In this document: positions 10,195 through 63,205 of the stretch, in pieces
How positions within the stretch are numbered: position 1 is the stretch's first letter
Layout of the letters: each line of letters begins with the position of its first letter
Assembly (NCBI GenBank): GCA_964411255.1
Contig: CAYPKD010000004.1
Span: 94,037 to 158,036 of the forward strand
Source of the DNA: an uncultured Gammaproteobacteria bacterium
GTDB lineage: Bacteria; Patescibacteriota; Patescibacteriia; UBA11705; DATKZF01
DNA length: 64,000 nt
Direction of reading: 5' to 3'
Translations under genes and position numbers: made by a program
The notes under the pieces: model-generated
What the model was told of the DNA's origin: nothing
Databases searched by the model: none
The model's input: the letters and a program-made list of their open reading frames with translations, nothing else

Positions 10195-10270
10195 TGGAGC
10201 CACCCGCCGGACTCGAACCGGCGACCGACGGTTTACAAAACCGTTGCTCTACCAACTGAGCTAGGGTGGC
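10195..10270 (-). tRNA. tRNA-Thr (anticodon UGU), CCA encoded
   Basis: Manual fold: acceptor GCCACCC/GGGTGGC, D-arm GCTC-AGTTGGTA-GAGC, anticodon stem ACGGT/ACCGT with loop TTTGTAA (anticodon TGT), 5-nt variable loop, T-arm GCCGG-TTCGAGT-CCGGC, discriminator T, CCA. The overlapping + strand ORF 10082..10264 is spurious. Confidence 0.85.
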
Positions 10271-13611: not shown

Positions 13612-13882
13612 AGTTGGATGGCTTCGGATCTATACAGATACCAATTTCAATGCCAGTGACTTTTATACAAGCTTATGGAATAACCTAAATCATACTTTCA
13701 AGGAATATCAGGGTAAAGTAGTGAAAATGGATGACTTTATTAAATATATCAAAAACAATATTGGACTGTATTATGATGTGATTTTTGACAAAAAGCTTAT
13801 TCTTATATCAATTAACTACAGAGCTCTTGAACCGGAAAAACAAGTTACTTTAATTTATCCAAAAAAACAAGCAGATTCATAA
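13577..13882 (+). CDS. hypothetical protein (overlaps the previous ORF by 35 nt in another frame; possible frameshift continuation)
   Basis: 101 aa ORF in frame +1 relative to 13243..13611; no separate RBS. Confidence 0.3.
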   Translation: MPKIKSRIFSFKVGWLRIYTDTNFNASDFYTSLWNNLNHTFKEYQGKVVKMDDFIKYIKNNIGLYYDVIFDKKLILISINYRALEPEKQVTLIYPKKQADS

Positions 13883-13891
13883 TCTGCTTTT

Positions 13892-14384: not shown

Positions 14385-14654
14385 GTGAAAATGAACAGTC
14401 ACCTTTCTGAAGCACAGCATCATGTTGATCTAGGAGAAACCGATACTTATATAAAATGTGAATATTGTCATAATTCATTGCCCAGTCATCATGCTGACTG
14501 TCCTCAGGTTACTAAAAAATTTCAAGAATGGAAAAAAGGGTTGAATATTGGCAGAAATGGCATAACTATGCCAAAAAATCTTAATCCTACTGCACAGGTC
14601 GGCTGGCATATAGGAAACATAATGCTTGATCCGAAAAATATTGCAAGAAACTAA
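14385..14654 (+). CDS. small Cys/His-rich hypothetical protein
   Basis: RBS aaggagtg; 'CEYCHNSLPSHHADCP' metal-binding-like motif; terminator follows. Confidence 0.5.
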   Translation: MKMNSHLSEAQHHVDLGETDTYIKCEYCHNSLPSHHADCPQVTKKFQEWKKGLNIGRNGITMPKNLNPTAQVGWHIGNIMLDPKNIARN

Positions 14655-14683
14655 ACTCTTCTGACATTCAGAAGAGTTTTTTA
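14655..14683 (+). terminator. rho-independent terminator
   Basis: ctcttctga-cat-tcagaagag followed by TTTTTT. Confidence 0.6.
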
Positions 14684-14936: not shown

Positions 14937-15182
14937 TGACAAATTTTTAATTTTATGAAAAAATTTAAATGGAGGGGGGTAGTCCAAGGTGGGACGTCAA
15001 TCAACCGTACAACAGTAGCGTCCACGAAAACCTTAAACAGTAAAGGAGTGAATGATGGATCACTTCAACATCGTCGGACGACCTGCGCCTGGAGACGACC
15101 CTTACGAGACCCCTAGCCTCAGGCTTTGAAAATTGACTTTTGGCTGCTTTTAAGCCGACCCTTGTCTTTTCAAAGCGACGTT

Positions 15183-15220
15183 GAACTCCTACTGACATTC
15201 AGTAGGAGTTCAAATTTTTT
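15183..15220 (+). terminator. rho-independent terminator (13-bp stem) closing the 14.94-15.22 kb unit
   Basis: gaactcctactga-cat-tcagtaggagttc then AAATTTTTT; shares the loop 'ctga-cat-tcag' with the 14655 terminator. Confidence 0.55.
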
Positions 15221-38306: not shown

Positions 38307-39368
38307 TTACTTATTTACAAAAACCGTCTGCGTCGGATATGCGAATTCTATACTTTCTTCATTAAATTTCTTATAAATGTCAAGGTTGATCTGCTGCTTT
38401 GCCTCTGCAAAAACATCAAACTCTTTTGACTTGACCTCATAAACAATTTTAAAAATTAAAGCAGAATCTCCAAAATTTTGAAATTTGCAACGGACAAATT
38501 CAAGATCCTTGTGTTTAGTAATTATATCCTCAATAATTTTTGGAATTGATTCCAATTTAGCTGAGGAAGTGTCATAGGTTACACCTAATTCAAAACTATC
38601 ACGACGCTTTTGCATTTTTCTAAAGTTCTGCACTCTGGCATTTGTCAATTCTCTGTTTGAAATAACCAATTCTTCACCATTCATTGTTCGAAGTCTTGAA
38701 GTTTTTAGTCCAATTTTTTCAACTGTGCCACTATCAGATCCGACCTGGATAAAATCCCCAATTTTAAATGGCTTATCAATATAAATGGAAAATGAGCTAA
38801 AAATATCTTCTAAAATATTCTGCAAGGCTAAAGCAATAGCAATACCGCCGATTCCTAATCCAGCTATTAATGCAGTCACATCAAAGCCTAGATTTCCAAG
38901 TATCAAAACAATTCCCACTGCCCACAAAACGATCTTTACTATGATTTTTAATGCTCTCATCATTGACTGGCTGATTGTTTCCTTATCAGCGGATTTTTCC
39001 ATGTACTTTTTTGCAGAATAATCTACCAATCTCTCTAAAGCATGAATTACTTCATAAACAATGACCAATAAAAACAAAACACTAATTACCTTGTGCACCA
39101 TTGCCGGAAAAGTTAATGCTTTAATTCCTAAATACAAGGCGACAAAAAAGTAAAACGGTGGCCTGATTTTTCGAAAAATCTCTATTAAAATGTCATCAAA
39201 TTCCGTCTCAGTCTTCTCCGACAGCTTTTTTAGTTTTGATAAAATAACTGATTGAAAAATTTTCAATACAAGAATTGTGCCAATGAAAATGGCTAAGGCC
39301 AAAACATATTCATATCCTGTATTTGACCAAAATTCTATAGCTTTTAAGGCTTCAATAATTTTGTCCAT
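38307..39368 (-). CDS. MscS-family small-conductance mechanosensitive channel
   Basis: Three N-terminal TM helices and the conserved beta-domain 'KIGDFIQVGSDSGTVEKIGLKTSRLRTMNGEELVISNRELTNARVQNF'. Confidence 0.8.
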   Translation of the reverse strand: MDKIIEALKAIEFWSNTGYEYVLALAIFIGTILVLKIFQSVILSKLKKLSEKTETEFDDILIEIFRKIRPPFYFFVALYLGIKALTFPAMVHKVISVLFLLVIVYEVIHALERLVDYSAKKYMEKSADKETISQSMMRALKIIVKIVLWAVGIVLILGNLGFDVTALIAGLGIGGIAIALALQNILEDIFSSFSIYIDKPFKIGDFIQVGSDSGTVEKIGLKTSRLRTMNGEELVISNRELTNARVQNFRKMQKRRDSFELGVTYDTSSAKLESIPKIIEDIITKHKDLEFVRCKFQNFGDSALIFKIVYEVKSKEFDVFAEAKQQINLDIYKKFNEESIEFAYPTQTVFVNK

Positions 39369-39404
39369 ATTTTTTTGTTAATTATGTTTATAATCTAGCA
39401 GTTT

Positions 39405-39560
39405 TTGGTGATTTTTGCAAAAGGCCGATTCACGGGCGCGTACCACGCGCCTGTAGAGACAGGTTTGAAACCTGTCTCTACGTAGGAACACAAAATATTG
39501 TGTTCCTACATGAATCGGCATAAAAAAACACCAAAGCTTTGCTTTGGCGCTTATAATTAT
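39405..39560. other. highly structured intergenic element: three adjacent perfect hairpins enclosed by an 8-bp outer stem, then a fourth hairpin
   Basis: Outer stem ccgattca...tgaatcgg; hairpins gggcgcgt-acca-cgcgcc, gtagagacaggtt-tgaa-acctgtctctac, gtaggaacacaaaat-attgtgttcctac; then ccaaagc-ttt-gctttgg. The overlapping ORF 39378..39623 is judged spurious. Confidence 0.5.
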
Positions 39561-39907
39561 AAATCTGGGAAAAACAAATCTCCTTTTATTGGGTGAGATG
39601 ATTCTGCTACAATTGCTTGCCATGTATCCCTTTTATTATATTCAAAACGAATCAGGGTTTTATCCATAAAATCTTTTTTATCAATTTCAAGTTTTAATAT
39701 ATAAAGGCGACCTTCAGTATCCAGCTCGAGCTCACATCCAATTATTGTACCTGTAATAACAAATGTATTACCCTCTTCACATGAACTTGCTGGCCCTGCA
39801 ATAAAACAAGCATTCCGGCCACGATTTCTACACAATGATTTTGGATCAGAATCTATGTCTATTCCATTTGACGAGAGTTCATCTACTATGGCTTGGGGTA
39901 TTTCCAT
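39557..39907 (-). CDS. hypothetical protein
   Basis: 116 aa ORF. Confidence 0.4.
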   Translation of the reverse strand: MEIPQAIVDELSSNGIDIDSDPKSLCRNRGRNACFIAGPASSCEEGNTFVITGTIIGCELELDTEGRLYILKLEIDKKDFMDKTLIRFEYNKRDTWQAIVAESSHPIKGDLFFPDL

Positions 39908-44798: not shown

Positions 44799-44943
44799 CT
44801 GAAAATAAAGTATAACAGATTGTATAAATTGTCAAATTTTGCTTAATCTATAAAACCATCTGTTTTATTTCTATATTTTTCAGTCTCTTATGAATATCGG
44901 GACAAAATCTTTTTATTCAGAACATCTTTTCATGTATAGCAAC

Positions 44944-45101
44944 GGGGGTCTGGGGGGCTGATTGCCCCTGGCGCGATAACAGAACTCAATCGAAGCTTCG
45001 CATTTGAAGACCCCCAGCGGTTTTTGGTTACTTTTTGACGCCAAAAAGTAACTTGGCGCAAGCCAACATTGCAAAGGGCAAAGCAGGCTTTGCCTGTATA
45101 G
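44944..45101. repeat. structured dispersed repeat, copy B
   Basis: Same core as copy A; variable loop differs; terminal hairpin caggc-ttt-gcctg; flanked by 'gtatag' on both sides. Confidence 0.8.
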
Positions 45102-45154
45102 GAAAAAATAATATTTGAATTTTAAAAAGCCTGCATTAAAAATGCAAACTCTTT

Positions 45155-48351: not shown

Positions 48352-48526
48352 ATGTTTGAAGCTAATTTATGTACTTTTATTATATCAAAAAAATGCTATT
48401 TTCCAAAATAATAAGGTAATTTTAAAAAAAATTTTACCTGTAATTATCCAAGATTGAATAGCTATACTATTACTTTAACTAAGGTTTTAGCTTTTTTATT
48501 ACAGCTCAATCATAATCATCCCTTTC

Positions 48527-48660
48527 GTGGGGTCTGGGGTGGCCACTCAGCGCCATATAAAAAAGCGTCAAATCGTATTCATTGTGATAGCGATTTGGCC
48601 ACCCCAGAACTTTTTGGTTCTTTTTGGTTACAAAAAGAACAAGGCCGCGCGCCTAGCGCA
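48527..48660. repeat. structured dispersed repeat, diverged copy E with compensatory substitutions
   Basis: Long-range stem is now ctggggtggcc/ggccaccccag; hairpin is gttctttttg-gttac-aaaaagaac; both structures retained despite sequence change. Confidence 0.65.
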
Positions 48661-48777
48661 CCATGAAAAAACATACATTAATGAAAATTCATATAAAGGG
48701 TTTTATAAGAAAGTAAGCATACCCCATAAAAAAAACACTATTTATCAAAATTAAATAGCATCTTTGTAATTTATCGT

Positions 48778-55055: not shown

Positions 55056-55145
55056 AAAAATAAGTTTATTAGAAGTACATATAATTTACCTAATTTTATT
55101 CAATTTGACAACTTTTATTTAGAACTTTCAACCGTTTATAGAAAC

Positions 55146-55334
55146 GGGGGTCTGGGGGGCTGATTGCCCGATGCGCGATACCTGCACATAATCAATACTT
55201 CGCATTTGAAGCCCCCCAGCGGTTTTTGCCCAGCACCAAAACAAAGTTTGGTGCTGGGTCGGCGCAAGCCGAGAACCGTATGGTTCTGGGCAAGTCAACA
55301 TTGAAAAGCCCAAAGCAGGCTCCAGGCCTGTTTT
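55146..55334. repeat. structured dispersed repeat, copy C with a compensatory hairpin swap and an inserted hairpin
   Basis: Core identical; central palindrome replaced by cccagcaccaaa-acaaag-tttggtgctggg; extra hairpin agaacc-gtat-ggttct; ends caggc-tccag-gcctg+TTTT. Confidence 0.8.
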
Positions 55335-55446
55335 GAAAAAAGTGACCTTTGCGTTATTAATCTTTAAAATAATTTAGTAGCTATTGTTGTTTCACAAAAA
55401 AACCAGATGTAAATCTGGTTTTTTATATATCATTTGTATAAATCTT

Positions 55447-58085: not shown

Positions 58086-58146
58086 ATTATATAAATAAAA
58101 ATTCACACATTGATGAAGATCAGAACATTTTTTCATTTATAGCATC

Positions 58147-58305
58147 GGGGGTCTGGGGGGCTGATTGCCCCCGGAGCGATCCTCAAACTTAATCGTTGCT
58201 TCGCATTTGAAGCCGCTCAGCACTTTTTGGTTACTTTTTGGTGCCAAAAAGTAACTTGGCGCAAGCCAACATTGCAAAACCCATAGCAGGCTCCAGGCCT
58301 GTTTT
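58147..58305. repeat. structured dispersed repeat, copy D
   Basis: Core as copies A/B; long-range stem partly degraded (agccgctcagc); ends caggc-tccag-gcctg+TTTT as in copy C. Confidence 0.8.
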
Positions 58306-58377
58306 GAAAAAGATTAAATTTATTTTTTCCTAAATAAAAAACCCTGATACTATAGGGATATAAAACTCGTAATTCAA

Positions 58378-61109: not shown

Positions 61110-61823
61110 CTATGAAGGAATGATTACTTTTCCCTTAATTTTTCCTTCTTTTGCTAACTTTTGCGCTTTTTCTTTCACTTTATCAGAACAACCACCAACC
61201 CAAAAATTATGCCCGACATATATATTATCTGGCAAATTTTCAATAGCTGACCTTGCTATGTCAAAACTCCCTGTAACATGCGTATTTTCAGGTATGTGAG
61301 ATAGTTTTGCATTTTTCATATCACATGAACCTTTTACAGTTAATCCCGGGCCATTCCATTTTTTAACTTCCGCATCATTTAATAAAAGATGTCCATTAAC
61401 AGTTAAATTTGGCGGGAATTCGTCAATTACTTTACCTCTCAAACGCAGATAGCCTATTGTTTCTAATCGAGGGAATTTGGTTAAATCAAAAGTCTGTGCT
61501 GTATATTCTGAAATTGAAAAATCAGGAAATTCATAAACCTTTTCCACCCACTCTTCAAGCCTACCTAGAGTCCATATTTTTTTTTCATCCTCTTTTATTT
61601 TTTTATCCTTCTCTTCTTTAATCTTTAACAATTCATTTTTATAGTCAGTATATAAATCTAATGCTTCTTGCAGCTTCCCTGCCTTTTCCGCAGCCACTGC
61701 CTTATCCATAATATTTCCCAGAAATTCCTTTTCTTCATCAGTTAAAGGCACACGCTTAATCTCAGCACGTTTTGGTTTGGCCATTTTTAATTGACTTTCT
61801 AGTGATTGAGGTTGTTCTGGCAT
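61110..61823 (-). CDS. paralog-family protein 3
   Basis: Start set to 'MPEQPQSLESQLKMAKPKRAEIKRVPLTDEEKEFLGNIMDKAVAAEKAGKLQEAL'; the track start 61844 would overlap the upstream gene. Confidence 0.55.
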   Translation of the reverse strand: MPEQPQSLESQLKMAKPKRAEIKRVPLTDEEKEFLGNIMDKAVAAEKAGKLQEALDLYTDYKNELLKIKEEKDKKIKEDEKKIWTLGRLEEWVEKVYEFPDFSISEYTAQTFDLTKFPRLETIGYLRLRGKVIDEFPPNLTVNGHLLLNDAEVKKWNGPGLTVKGSCDMKNAKLSHIPENTHVTGSFDIARSAIENLPDNIYVGHNFWVGGCSDKVKEKAQKLAKEGKIKGKVIIPS

Positions 61824-61840
61824 ATATTTTAGGTATAAAA

Positions 61841-63205
61841 TCAAATCGTATTTATTCTCTTTACATAATTGTTTCCCTCCTTAGCAATTATATATATTTT
61901 ATCCTCATTTATTAAACCAAAATGATAAATTTCATCATAATCTTTACCAACTTTTTCTCCCTTTTCATTTACTACAAACCATTTGCCATCTTTTTTTGCT
62001 GCAAAAACAATTTTACCTCCAATATCTCGTGGATCTTTAACCTCATCATAATCGTGTCCAACTTTCTCCCCTGCTTCATTTACTACAAACTTTTTGCCAT
62101 CTTTTTTTGCTGAAAAAGTAATTTTACCTCCAATATCTTGTACCTGCCCAACATTATCATAATCTTGTCCAACTTTTTCTCCTTTTTCATTTATTGTAAA
62201 CCATTTACCATCTTTTTTTGCTGAAAAAGCAATTTTACCTCCAATATCTTGTGGATCTTTAACCTCATCATAATCTTGTCCGACTTTTTCTCCTTTTTCA
62301 TTCATAACAAACTGTTTATTATCCTTGATTGCTACAAAAGCAATTTTTCCTCCAATATCCTGTGGGTCCCAAATTTTATCATAATCTTGTTCAGTTTCTT
62401 CACCCTTTTCGTTTACTATAAACCATTTGCCATCTTTTTTTGCTCGAAAAACAATTTTACCTCCAATATCTTGTGCCTGCCCAATATGATCATAATCTTG
62501 TCCAACTTTTTCTCCTTTTTCATTTATTATAAACCATTTGCTACCTTTTTTTGCAGAAAAAGCAAGCTTACCACTAATATTTTTTAAAAAACTAATATGA
62601 TCATAATCTTGTCCAACTTTTTCTCCTTTTTCATTAACTACAAAGCATTTGTCATCTTTTTTTGCTCGAAAAACAATTTTTCCTCCAATTTCATGAGGAT
62701 ACCCAACATCATCATAATCGTGTCCAACTTTTTCTCCTTTTTCATTTATTATAAACTCTTTGTTGTTTTTTTCAGCATCAAAAGCAATCCTGCCTCCGAT
62801 ACTTTCAGGATAGCCAACATCATCATATTCATCTCCAACTTTTTCTCCCTTTTCATTTACTACAAACCATTTGCCATCTTTTTTTGCTGCAAAAGCAATT
62901 TTTCCTCCAATATCTTGAGGCTTTCGAACTCCATCATATTTCTTTATATCTATTAAAGCCACTATTAGTCCTTCATTATTTTCCTTTTCTTCTCTTTTTT
63001 TAATCTTTAATAATTCATTCTTATAATTCGAATAAAAATCCAAAGCCTCTTCTAATCTTCCAGCCTTTTCCGCAGCCACTGCCTTATCCATAATATTTCC
63101 CAGAAATTCCTTTTCTTCATCAGTTAAAGGCACACGCTTAATCTCAGCACGTTTTGGTTTGGCCATTTTTAATTGACTTTCTAGTGATTGAGGTTGTTCT
63201 GGCAT
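61841..63205 (-). CDS. paralog-family protein 4: shared N-terminal domain plus 11 tandem WG-like beta repeats
   Basis: N-terminus identical in 55 of 58 residues to paralog 3 (near-identical DNA); C-terminal '(I)GGKIxFxAKKDGKWFVVNEKGEKVGxDYDxV' repeated 11 times (WG/KWG-repeat-like). Confidence 0.6.
   Translation of the reverse strand: MPEQPQSLESQLKMAKPKRAEIKRVPLTDEEKEFLGNIMDKAVAAEKAGRLEEALDFYSNYKNELLKIKKREEKENNEGLIVALIDIKKYDGVRKPQDIGGKIAFAAKKDGKWFVVNEKGEKVGDEYDDVGYPESIGGRIAFDAEKNNKEFIINEKGEKVGHDYDDVGYPHEIGGKIVFRAKKDDKCFVVNEKGEKVGQDYDHISFLKNISGKLAFSAKKGSKWFIINEKGEKVGQDYDHIGQAQDIGGKIVFRAKKDGKWFIVNEKGEETEQDYDKIWDPQDIGGKIAFVAIKDNKQFVMNEKGEKVGQDYDEVKDPQDIGGKIAFSAKKDGKWFTINEKGEKVGQDYDNVGQVQDIGGKITFSAKKDGKKFVVNEAGEKVGHDYDEVKDPRDIGGKIVFAAKKDGKWFVVNEKGEKVGKDYDEIYHFGLINEDKIYIIAKEGNNYVKRINTI
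61960..62930. repeat. ~99-bp coding tandem repeat x11 (WG-like repeats)
   Basis: Periodic 'ttttacctccaatatc...tttttctcc...' units; generates the spurious F-rich antisense ORFs 61922..62956. Confidence 0.8.

Follow-up and report, generated by a model that had tools for sequence, protein, structure and literature searches.

Introduction

Double-foot REPs are the DNA substrates of RAYT (TnpA_REP) proteins of subclass 2.4, which are single-strand DNA transposase-like nucleases of the HUH/Y1 type. RAYT enzymes recognise a folded hairpin together with its GTAG foot in single-stranded DNA, and they cut and rejoin the strand beside the hairpin; we know of no RAYT for which this cut-and-join mechanism has been proven in vivo. 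Selfish palindromes are usually tolerated in the gaps between a terminator and the next promoter. The double-foot REPs of TnpA_REP subclass 2.4 have a long stem that opens with GT[AG]G (5′) and closes with the reverse complement of this foot, C[TC]AC (3′) (PMC6006769). This subclass (Quentin et al. 2018, PMC6006769) is the same as RAYT group 4 (Bertels et al. 2017, PMC5581495), the repeats of which are low in copy number, with approximately 14 occurrences per replicon (PMC5581495). The loss of a RAYT gene with retention of its REPs has been documented (PMC3733652, PMC6006769). A second relevant set of repeats is that of the GTAG REPs, for which Di Nocera et al. (2013, PMC3733652) reported grouping, dimers nested within longer palindromes and hybrid dimers that combine different families.

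The locus described here is the gap between mscS and the gene upstream of it in a 64-kb stretch of Patescibacteria DNA (the window, meaning the whole stretch that was analysed). The block found in this gap shares with the subclass 2.4/group 4 systems the long perfect stems with GTAG and CTAC feet, the occurrence in few copies per genome scattered across phyla, and linked loci whose enzymes carry the NH[IV]H, WQ and YIxNNP motifs. It departs from the published members in its Patescibacteria/Parcubacteria host, which is absent from both surveys (PMC6006769, PMC5581495), in having neither a RAYT gene nor a further REP in approximately 80 kb, and in the fusion of two REPs of different families with zero spacer inside an extra enclosing stem. 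As in GTAG REP dimers and BIME mosaics (PMC3733652; E. coli BIMEs), REP units are grouped with short structured motifs in an extragenic position downstream of a gene, and the hybrid dimers of different GTAG families offer a parallel for the joining of two REP types (PMC3733652). REP dimers lying within a flanking palindrome are likewise represented by A. variabilis GTAG-15, T. roseum GTAG-23 and H. neapolitanus CGTC-1 (PMC3733652); unlike in those nested dimers, the closing stem here is only 9 bp long and is not a known repeat. The tag of classical GTAG REPs is found unpaired at a single end, whereas that of the REPs described here is paired and occurs at both ends, and the alternating orientation and conserved linkers of classical BIMEs also set them apart from the block. 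REPINs resemble it as non-autonomous two-REP units, presumed to be mobilised by a single-copy RAYT (Bertels & Rainey 2011, PMC3116915). However, a REPIN consists of two inverted copies of the same REP and a spacer, pairing into one long hairpin (PMC3116915), whereas the two REPs of the block differ in sequence, abut and fold each on itself. Finally, palindrome-associated elements derived from IS200/IS605, and MITEs, are similar in being small, hairpin-rich, non-coding insertions with no obvious target duplication (HUH 'peel and paste'), but the block lacks the distinct end hairpins (left and right) that carry guide and cleavage sites, shows no tnpA/tnpB remnant and is not present in multiple copies.

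Results

The core of the block (39424-39519 of the plus-strand sequence) is a 96-nt four-way junction, in which a 9-bp closing stem encloses three hairpins (Table 1). On the plus strand, the 5′ closing arm is followed by a single C, hairpin 1, hairpin 2, hairpin 3, a single A and the 3′ closing arm. Hairpins 2 and 3, called REP2 and REP3, both start with GTAG and end with CTAC, have 7 of 12 stem positions in common and abut head to tail with zero spacer (CTAC/GTAG junction). With a 5′ GT[AG]G, a 3′ C[TC]AC and long stems of 13 bp (REP2) and 12 bp (REP3), they are double-foot REPs by definition. REP2, REP3 and the closing stem are paired by Watson-Crick pairs throughout, with no G·U on either strand, and the stem of hairpin 1 is made of seven Watson-Crick pairs and one G·T. 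An earlier note, made from the sequence alone, had described three perfect hairpins within a closing stem and a fourth hairpin beside them. This description holds for REP2 and REP3; hairpin 1 contains the one G·T pair, and the fourth hairpin turned out to be a separate terminator.

Table 1. Positions of the features in and around the gap upstream of mscS, and of similar composites in Patescibacteria MAG187 (window coordinates unless a locus is named)
Feature	Position	Strand	Evidence or remark
Closing stem, 5′ arm, GCCGATTCA	39424-39432		perfect pairing with 39511-39519 in every fold
Closing stem, 3′ arm, TGAATCGGC	39511-39519		pairs with 39424-39432
Hairpin 1, G+C-rich accessory hairpin, GGGCGCGT-ACC-ACGCGCCT	39434-39452		without GTAG foot
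Hairpin 2 (REP2), double-foot REP, GTAGAGACAGGTT-TGA-AACCTGTCTCTAC	39453-39481		13-bp perfect stem
Hairpin 3 (REP3), double-foot REP, GTAGGAACACAA-AATA-TTGTGTTCCTAC	39482-39509		12-bp perfect stem
Intrinsic terminator of the 116-aa gene (fourth hairpin), CGCCAAAGC-AAA-GCTTTGGTG and T7	39522-39552	-	terminator scan, conservation
116-aa gene	39557-39907	-	upstream of the terminator; flanking genes both on the minus strand
Likely mscS promoter: -35 TTGCAA (39415-39420), 17-nt spacer, extended -10 TGcTAGATT (39392-39400)	39392-39420	-	conservation
mscS, 353 aa, MS_channel domains	38307-39368	-	gene downstream of the apparent insertion
MAG187 composites	L166 3870-3935; L200 2145-2220; L246 5650-5725; L252 6517-6615		architecture like that of the window element

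The minimum free energy structure of both strands (ViennaRNA) was exactly this four-way junction, so the multi-hairpin element proposed in the earlier note is real. Folded as RNA, the 156-nt interval 39405-39560 reached -77.1 kcal/mol on the plus strand (z = -11.2) and -82.0 kcal/mol on the minus strand (z = -13.3), and the 96-nt core (39424-39519) folded as single-stranded DNA reached -44 kcal/mol (z = -15.6). None of 200 shuffles attained these energies, which, at z values of -11 to -16, are far from the unremarkable ones that would have spoken against the element. The whole 64-kb window holds only 22 perfect hairpins with stems of at least 9 bp, two of which adjoin here, and the G+C content of the core is 51% in comparison to 33.6% for the window. 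The block is identical in four independent assemblies of one organism (two from JGI, one from ENA and one from Logan) and is therefore not an assembly artefact. By its nearest named MscS homologues, this organism is a bacterium of the Patescibacteria/Parcubacteria type. An origin from the Tn5 mosaic end or a Nextera adapter (CTGTCTCT core) was considered and rejected: only 8 nt match, the four assemblies are identical and the hairpins belong to a natural family. The Rfam scan suggested in the earlier note gave, at gathering scores, only tRNA-Thr at 10195-10270 for the window, and noise for 39300-39650 at E values up to 10; all local matches at the block were far below the gathering scores. ARAGORN made no tRNA-like call at the element, tRNA-Thr (10195-10270) being the only tRNA of the window.

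On the side of the 116-aa gene, the block is bordered by the fourth hairpin. The hairpin proper occupies 39529-39549 (39549-39529 on the minus strand), with its start 8 nt past the 116-aa gene's stop codon and seven T behind it; the site given by the terminator scan, from 39552 to 39526, was the sole terminator-like site reported in the region. It contains one G·U pair on the minus strand, in place of which the plus strand would have an A/C mismatch. Among the relatives described below, the hairpin is identical in L005 and L009 and carries a compensatory change in L008. The fourth hairpin combines a G+C-containing stem-loop, a T-run and a position directly after a stop codon, and it is an ordinary terminator outside the inserted element. 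The earlier remark that the gap holds far more structure than a terminator needs was thus right, the terminator proper being this hairpin only. On the side of mscS, the sequence TTGCAA-17 nt-TGcTAGATT (39420-39392, minus strand) is almost base-for-base identical in four relatives, and this conservation makes it the likely mscS promoter, although a consensus promoter scan left it unscored (8/12 matches). The block sits just upstream of the -35 box, between it and the T-run of the terminator.

The loci of the four closest MscS homologues served as the comparison set (L005, L007, L008 and L009, with 81, 74, 72 and 70% identity, respectively). In three of the four (L005, L008, L009), the T-run of the terminator is directly followed by TTGC(A/C)AAAAT…TGnTA(G/A)ATT(A/G)TA and then by mscS. 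In L007 the promoter aligns, the terminator region matches only at the T-run, and a HicAB pair lies upstream. The block stands out in the alignment as a single clean gap of approximately 100 nt, is absent from all four relatives, and has the arms of its closing stem exactly at its borders. Since the four relatives have the terminator and the promoter without the block, the block of approximately 100 nt is, judged from this alignment, a lineage-specific insertion lying outside the mscS leader. Neither a target-site duplication nor a defined target motif was visible at the block borders in the alignment with the four relatives, so the mechanism of insertion is one that we infer. As a separate observation, the HicA/HicB toxin-antitoxin pair of L007 (2393-2864; MscS 74% identical) takes the place of the 116-aa gene, which marks the region upstream of mscS as a site of recurrent gene turnover.

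Public metagenome contigs were scanned for REP2 with the pattern GTAGAGACAGG-N5-9-CCTGTCTCTAC, and public genome contigs for REP3 with the pattern GTAGGAACAC-N4-12-GTGTTCCTAC. Since the outermost 10-11 nt of each stem were specified in the patterns, conservation across taxa in these positions is partly imposed by the search. The REP2 pattern occurred in at least 120 metagenome contigs of 29-64% G+C, and among the matches listed the exact REP2 29-mer was present in 21 metagenome contigs (33-52% G+C). The REP3 pattern was found in at least 119 genome contigs. Among the matches listed, these were mostly from Bacteroidota, with further ones from the FCB group, Ignavibacteria, Chloroflexota and Cyanobacteria, and Patescibacteria contributed at least 11 loci from seven MAGs. 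A variant of REP3 with an A/T centre (AAAATTTT or AAGATTTT; AAAATATT in the window) was, among the matches listed, almost confined to Patescibacteria MAGs, and the nearest such variant is one loop base apart from the REP3 of the window. The REP/MITE-like candidate of the earlier note is borne out to the extent that REP2 and REP3, two of the three inner hairpins, fall into widespread GTAG…CTAC families tied to RAYT genes. Its possible refutation, that the motif is a common REP-like repeat, applies to public metagenomes and genomes at large but not to this genome, where no further copy of REP2 or REP3 was found in approximately 80 kb of the source contig (the 64-kb window and 16 kb of flanks, L262/L263). 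A search of the window with up to 2 mismatches returned no copy of the element beyond itself. Group 4 repeats being of low copy number (PMC5581495), the low local number of REPs is unsurprising.

The 20-mer across the REP2/REP3 junction, CTGTCTCTACGTAGGAACAC, had 0 matches in species-representative genomes, and the composite is therefore not present in any of these genomes. No second zero-spacer pair of two different full REPs was found among approximately 300 double-foot palindromes. In blastn, the 96-mer had no match in plasmids and phages; viral contigs scanned with both hairpin cores yielded only unrelated terminators without GTAG feet. When the block and its flanks were compared with 1.5 Mb of collected loci by blastn-short, only the two REPs and the orthologous terminator were recovered. 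The rare features of the block are its two different REPs without a spacer, its closing stem and its Patescibacteria host. We additionally observed that tandem partial copies, of the 5′ arm only (GTAGGAACACGCC… repeated), often precede a full REP in many loci (for example L153 5440-5542, L219 663-705, L234 1-93, L096 240-321), an arrangement suggestive of copying that repeatedly aborted or slipped at the hairpin.

A RAYT-like gene was present in 24 of the 239 loci examined. In all but one of these (23/24), the palindrome lay at most 100 nt from the gene or inside it; the latter position, after the HUH motif, accounts for 14 loci. Palindromes of the REP2 type occur in frame inside the RAYT-like genes of L035, L110 and L132, and in several metagenome contigs they directly follow, within the ORF, the sequence MPNH(V/I)HG, the HUH motif of IS200-like Y1 enzymes. 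The A/T-centred variant of REP3 was found inside or beside the RAYT genes of L175, L225, L238 and L216. The RAYT-like ORFs carry the subclass 2.4 motifs NH[IV]H, WQ and YIxNNP. Their only NCBIfam match was NF047646, REP-associated tyrosine transposase (E = 1e-12 to 1e-17), their only PDB match was E. coli TnpA_REP (4ER8), and their homologues are annotated in JGI as 'REP element-mobilizing transposase RayT'. REP2 and REP3 belong to RAYT-linked families, including in Parcubacteria and Paceibacterota: the L035 RAYT, which carries a REP2-type palindrome, is 86% identical to a Parcubacteria transposase, and the REP3-type RAYTs (L175/L238) come from Paceibacterota and Patescibacteria MAGs. The L035-type and the L175/L238-type enzymes are only 37-43% identical; since REP2 and REP3 go with these separate types, the block joins REPs cognate to two RAYT lineages, both of which occur in the Patescibacteria/Parcubacteria clade.

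A tblastn search with four RAYT queries found no RAYT gene in the window and 16 kb of extra flank, the only match being to the peptide encoded by the REP, and none of the best 120 homologues of either RAYT type was located on the 364,661-bp source contig. A side result concerns the genes with an in-frame REP after the HUH motif (L035 4510-5046, L110 134-763, L132 13-636, L175 2508-2996, L238 718-1401), in which perfect 28-29-nt double-foot REPs encode VETGHALSL, VETGLKPVS or VGTQDFVFL; approximately 20 consecutive glutamine codons come after the REP in L132. The REP within the gene is a published peculiarity of subclass 2.4, which these five loci bear out and extend to Parcubacteria and Paceibacterota.

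Pattern searches of the window, of L262/L263 and of 1.5 Mb of loci found neither a second copy of the closing stem nor hairpin 1 as a repeat. The architecture, as distinct from the sequence, recurs in Patescibacteria MAG187 (Table 1). All four REP3-type palindromes examined in this MAG are enclosed by a closing stem of 8-16 bp, of unrelated sequence in each case; in three of the four, the closing stem also surrounds small G+C-rich hairpins (one or two), and four-way junctions like that of the window are formed in two. G+C-rich perfect hairpins are otherwise rare in the 8-kb loci of MAG187. Nested REP composites were seen as well in Marinilabiliaceae, in Ferruginibacter and in other metagenome contigs. 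One of these cases, in a Ferruginibacter MAG (L194 4170-4349), is a perfect palindrome of approximately 180 nt with a GTAGGAACAC REP at its centre (87-bp stem, -157 kcal/mol); its flanks appear to have been duplicated in inverted orientation, with the REP hairpin as the seed. A comparable fold-back (template-switch) origin of the closing stem in the window was rejected, the interior of the block being asymmetric, unlike that of the L194 180-nt perfect palindrome.

The window contains further repeats. A second, unrelated intergenic family of approximately 190-220 nt is represented by four copies (2176-2367, 44917-45108, 55119-55340, 58120-58311) and a diverged fifth one at approximately 48492-48680. 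G-runs (GGGGGTCTGGGGGGCTGATTGCCCC … GAAGCCCCCCAGCGG) are conserved among its members, which also have one internal (GTTACTTTTTG-N4-CAAAAAGTAAC) and one terminal hairpin; in the copy at 55119 the internal hairpin has been swapped for a different, longer one, the presence of a hairpin being kept. This family, a candidate structured ncRNA or MITE in the Patescibacteria genome studied, had no Rfam match at gathering scores or at E values up to 1. At 61817-63004 there are nine tandem 111-nt units, 64-82% identical to the reference copy, which lie within a 454-aa ORF (61841-63205, minus strand) and would yield a protein with 37-residue repeats. Three perfect hairpins with stems of 9-15 bp and T-runs (13869-13889, 14653-14679, 15181-15213) have a common CAT loop, with a TGA-CAT-TCA centre in two of them, and are probably ordinary intrinsic terminators.

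Discussion

The data presented here are best accommodated if the block is a REP/BIME-like mosaic, made of two double-foot REPs and an accessory hairpin within a 9-bp inverted repeat and inserted between the terminator and the mscS promoter, and we consider this reading probable. In this Patescibacteria (Parcubacteria-like) lineage, the block would have entered the space that separates the mscS -35 box from the terminator T-run of the upstream gene. The placement or assembly of the block may be due to a present or past RAYT acting in trans, which we infer from family membership and not from observation. The exact CTAC/GTAG junction could be the product of HUH cutting and joining, and family membership is compatible with movement of the block as a unit as well as with stepwise insertion into a hairpin loop. 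Today the block is presumably largely neutral, acting at most as a structural barrier behind the terminator or through altered DNA upstream of the mscS promoter.

Four other origins or roles were weighed against such a mosaic. The block might be what is left of a REPtron, a RAYT gene with its REPs that once resided here or elsewhere and was reduced to a fused REP cluster by recombination or RAYT-mediated deletion. RAYT genes of this subclass do carry REPs inside and at their flanks, both in the loci examined and in published genomes (PMC6006769), REPtron loss by deletion has been reported (PMC3733652), and the zero-spacer CTAC/GTAG fusion resembles a precise cut-and-join product. We nevertheless find this origin unlikely, as the cognate RAYTs are only 37-43% identical and one gene carrying both REPs is not expected; in addition, tblastn detected no RAYT coding remnant but only the REP-encoded peptide, and the relatives have no RAYT at the mscS locus.

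Slightly less credit, and quite a low probability, is given to a functional RNA or cis-acting structure, be it an sRNA on the plus strand or a 3′ stabiliser, second terminator or insulator for read-through from the 116-aa gene. The predicted stability is very high on both strands, REPs of E. coli have known effects on the stability of upstream mRNA, which they increase, and on termination and translation (background in PMC3733652 and PMC6006769), and transcripts reading through the terminator would include the block lying directly behind it. However, that terminator is conserved and precedes the block, and four relatives with the same gene order lack the block. There is no Rfam family and no promoter-like site before the block on either strand, and the stems of REP2, REP3 and the closing helix without G·U, with one G·T in hairpin 1, point to palindromes of DNA; on these same grounds the structured sRNA named as a candidate in the earlier note has no support.

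A MITE-like cassette is a little more doubtful still. On this view a conventional (DDE) transposase would have moved a miniature transposon bounded by the 9-bp inverted repeats, into which the REPs had inserted as passengers. Such a cassette would account for perfect 9-bp terminal inverted repeats situated exactly at the block borders and for the presence of the entire block as one inserted unit in comparison to the relatives. Of the hallmarks of a MITE (terminal inverted repeats, target-site duplication, multiple copies), only the 9-bp inverted repeat is present, and it is short for a MITE; no target-site duplication was seen, nor a second copy in approximately 80 kb or in any locus examined. 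In MAG187, moreover, the closing stems vary between copies and the REP is constant, the opposite of what is expected for a MITE family. A riboswitch or leader regulating mscS, to which only the elaborate fold and the position upstream of mscS on the coding strand lend support, is highly improbable, and a conserved one is excluded, because the block lies upstream of the conserved -35/-10 elements and is missing from four relatives that keep the promoter and mscS, and it has no Rfam match and no unpaired conserved junction nucleotides for a ligand pocket.

The REP/BIME-like mosaic can be placed within a broader and more speculative proposal, which we put forward tentatively and regard as rather improbable. 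Rather than move as bare hairpins, double-foot REPs of Patescibacteria may be built into, or captured by, four-way-junction cassettes with an idiosyncratic closing stem, G+C-rich accessory hairpins and one or two REPs. Such cassettes could arise if HUH enzymes of the RAYT type inserted preferentially into the single-stranded loops of extruded hairpins, or if separately cut hairpins were joined end to end, in which case the CTAC/GTAG junction would be the footprint. If true, REP mosaics would be assembled in a previously undescribed manner, RAYT activity would for the first time become accessible in the reduced genomes of CPR bacteria, and the block described here would have been made, as a hybrid, by two distinct RAYT lineages.

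With the assignment to REPs, the attractive but mistaken idea of a 'cloverleaf' RNA or riboswitch preceding a mechanosensitive channel gene can be set aside. The clean presence/absence polymorphism among the relatives offers a dated insertion event beside a promoter. Selfish palindromes of the REP/RAYT type also reach the streamlined genomes of Patescibacteria, a host group for which the papers cited do not describe them; the literature search found no paper linking RAYTs with Patescibacteria. The spacer-free junction and the recurring closing-stem architecture are substrates on which cutting and joining by RAYTs can be tested.
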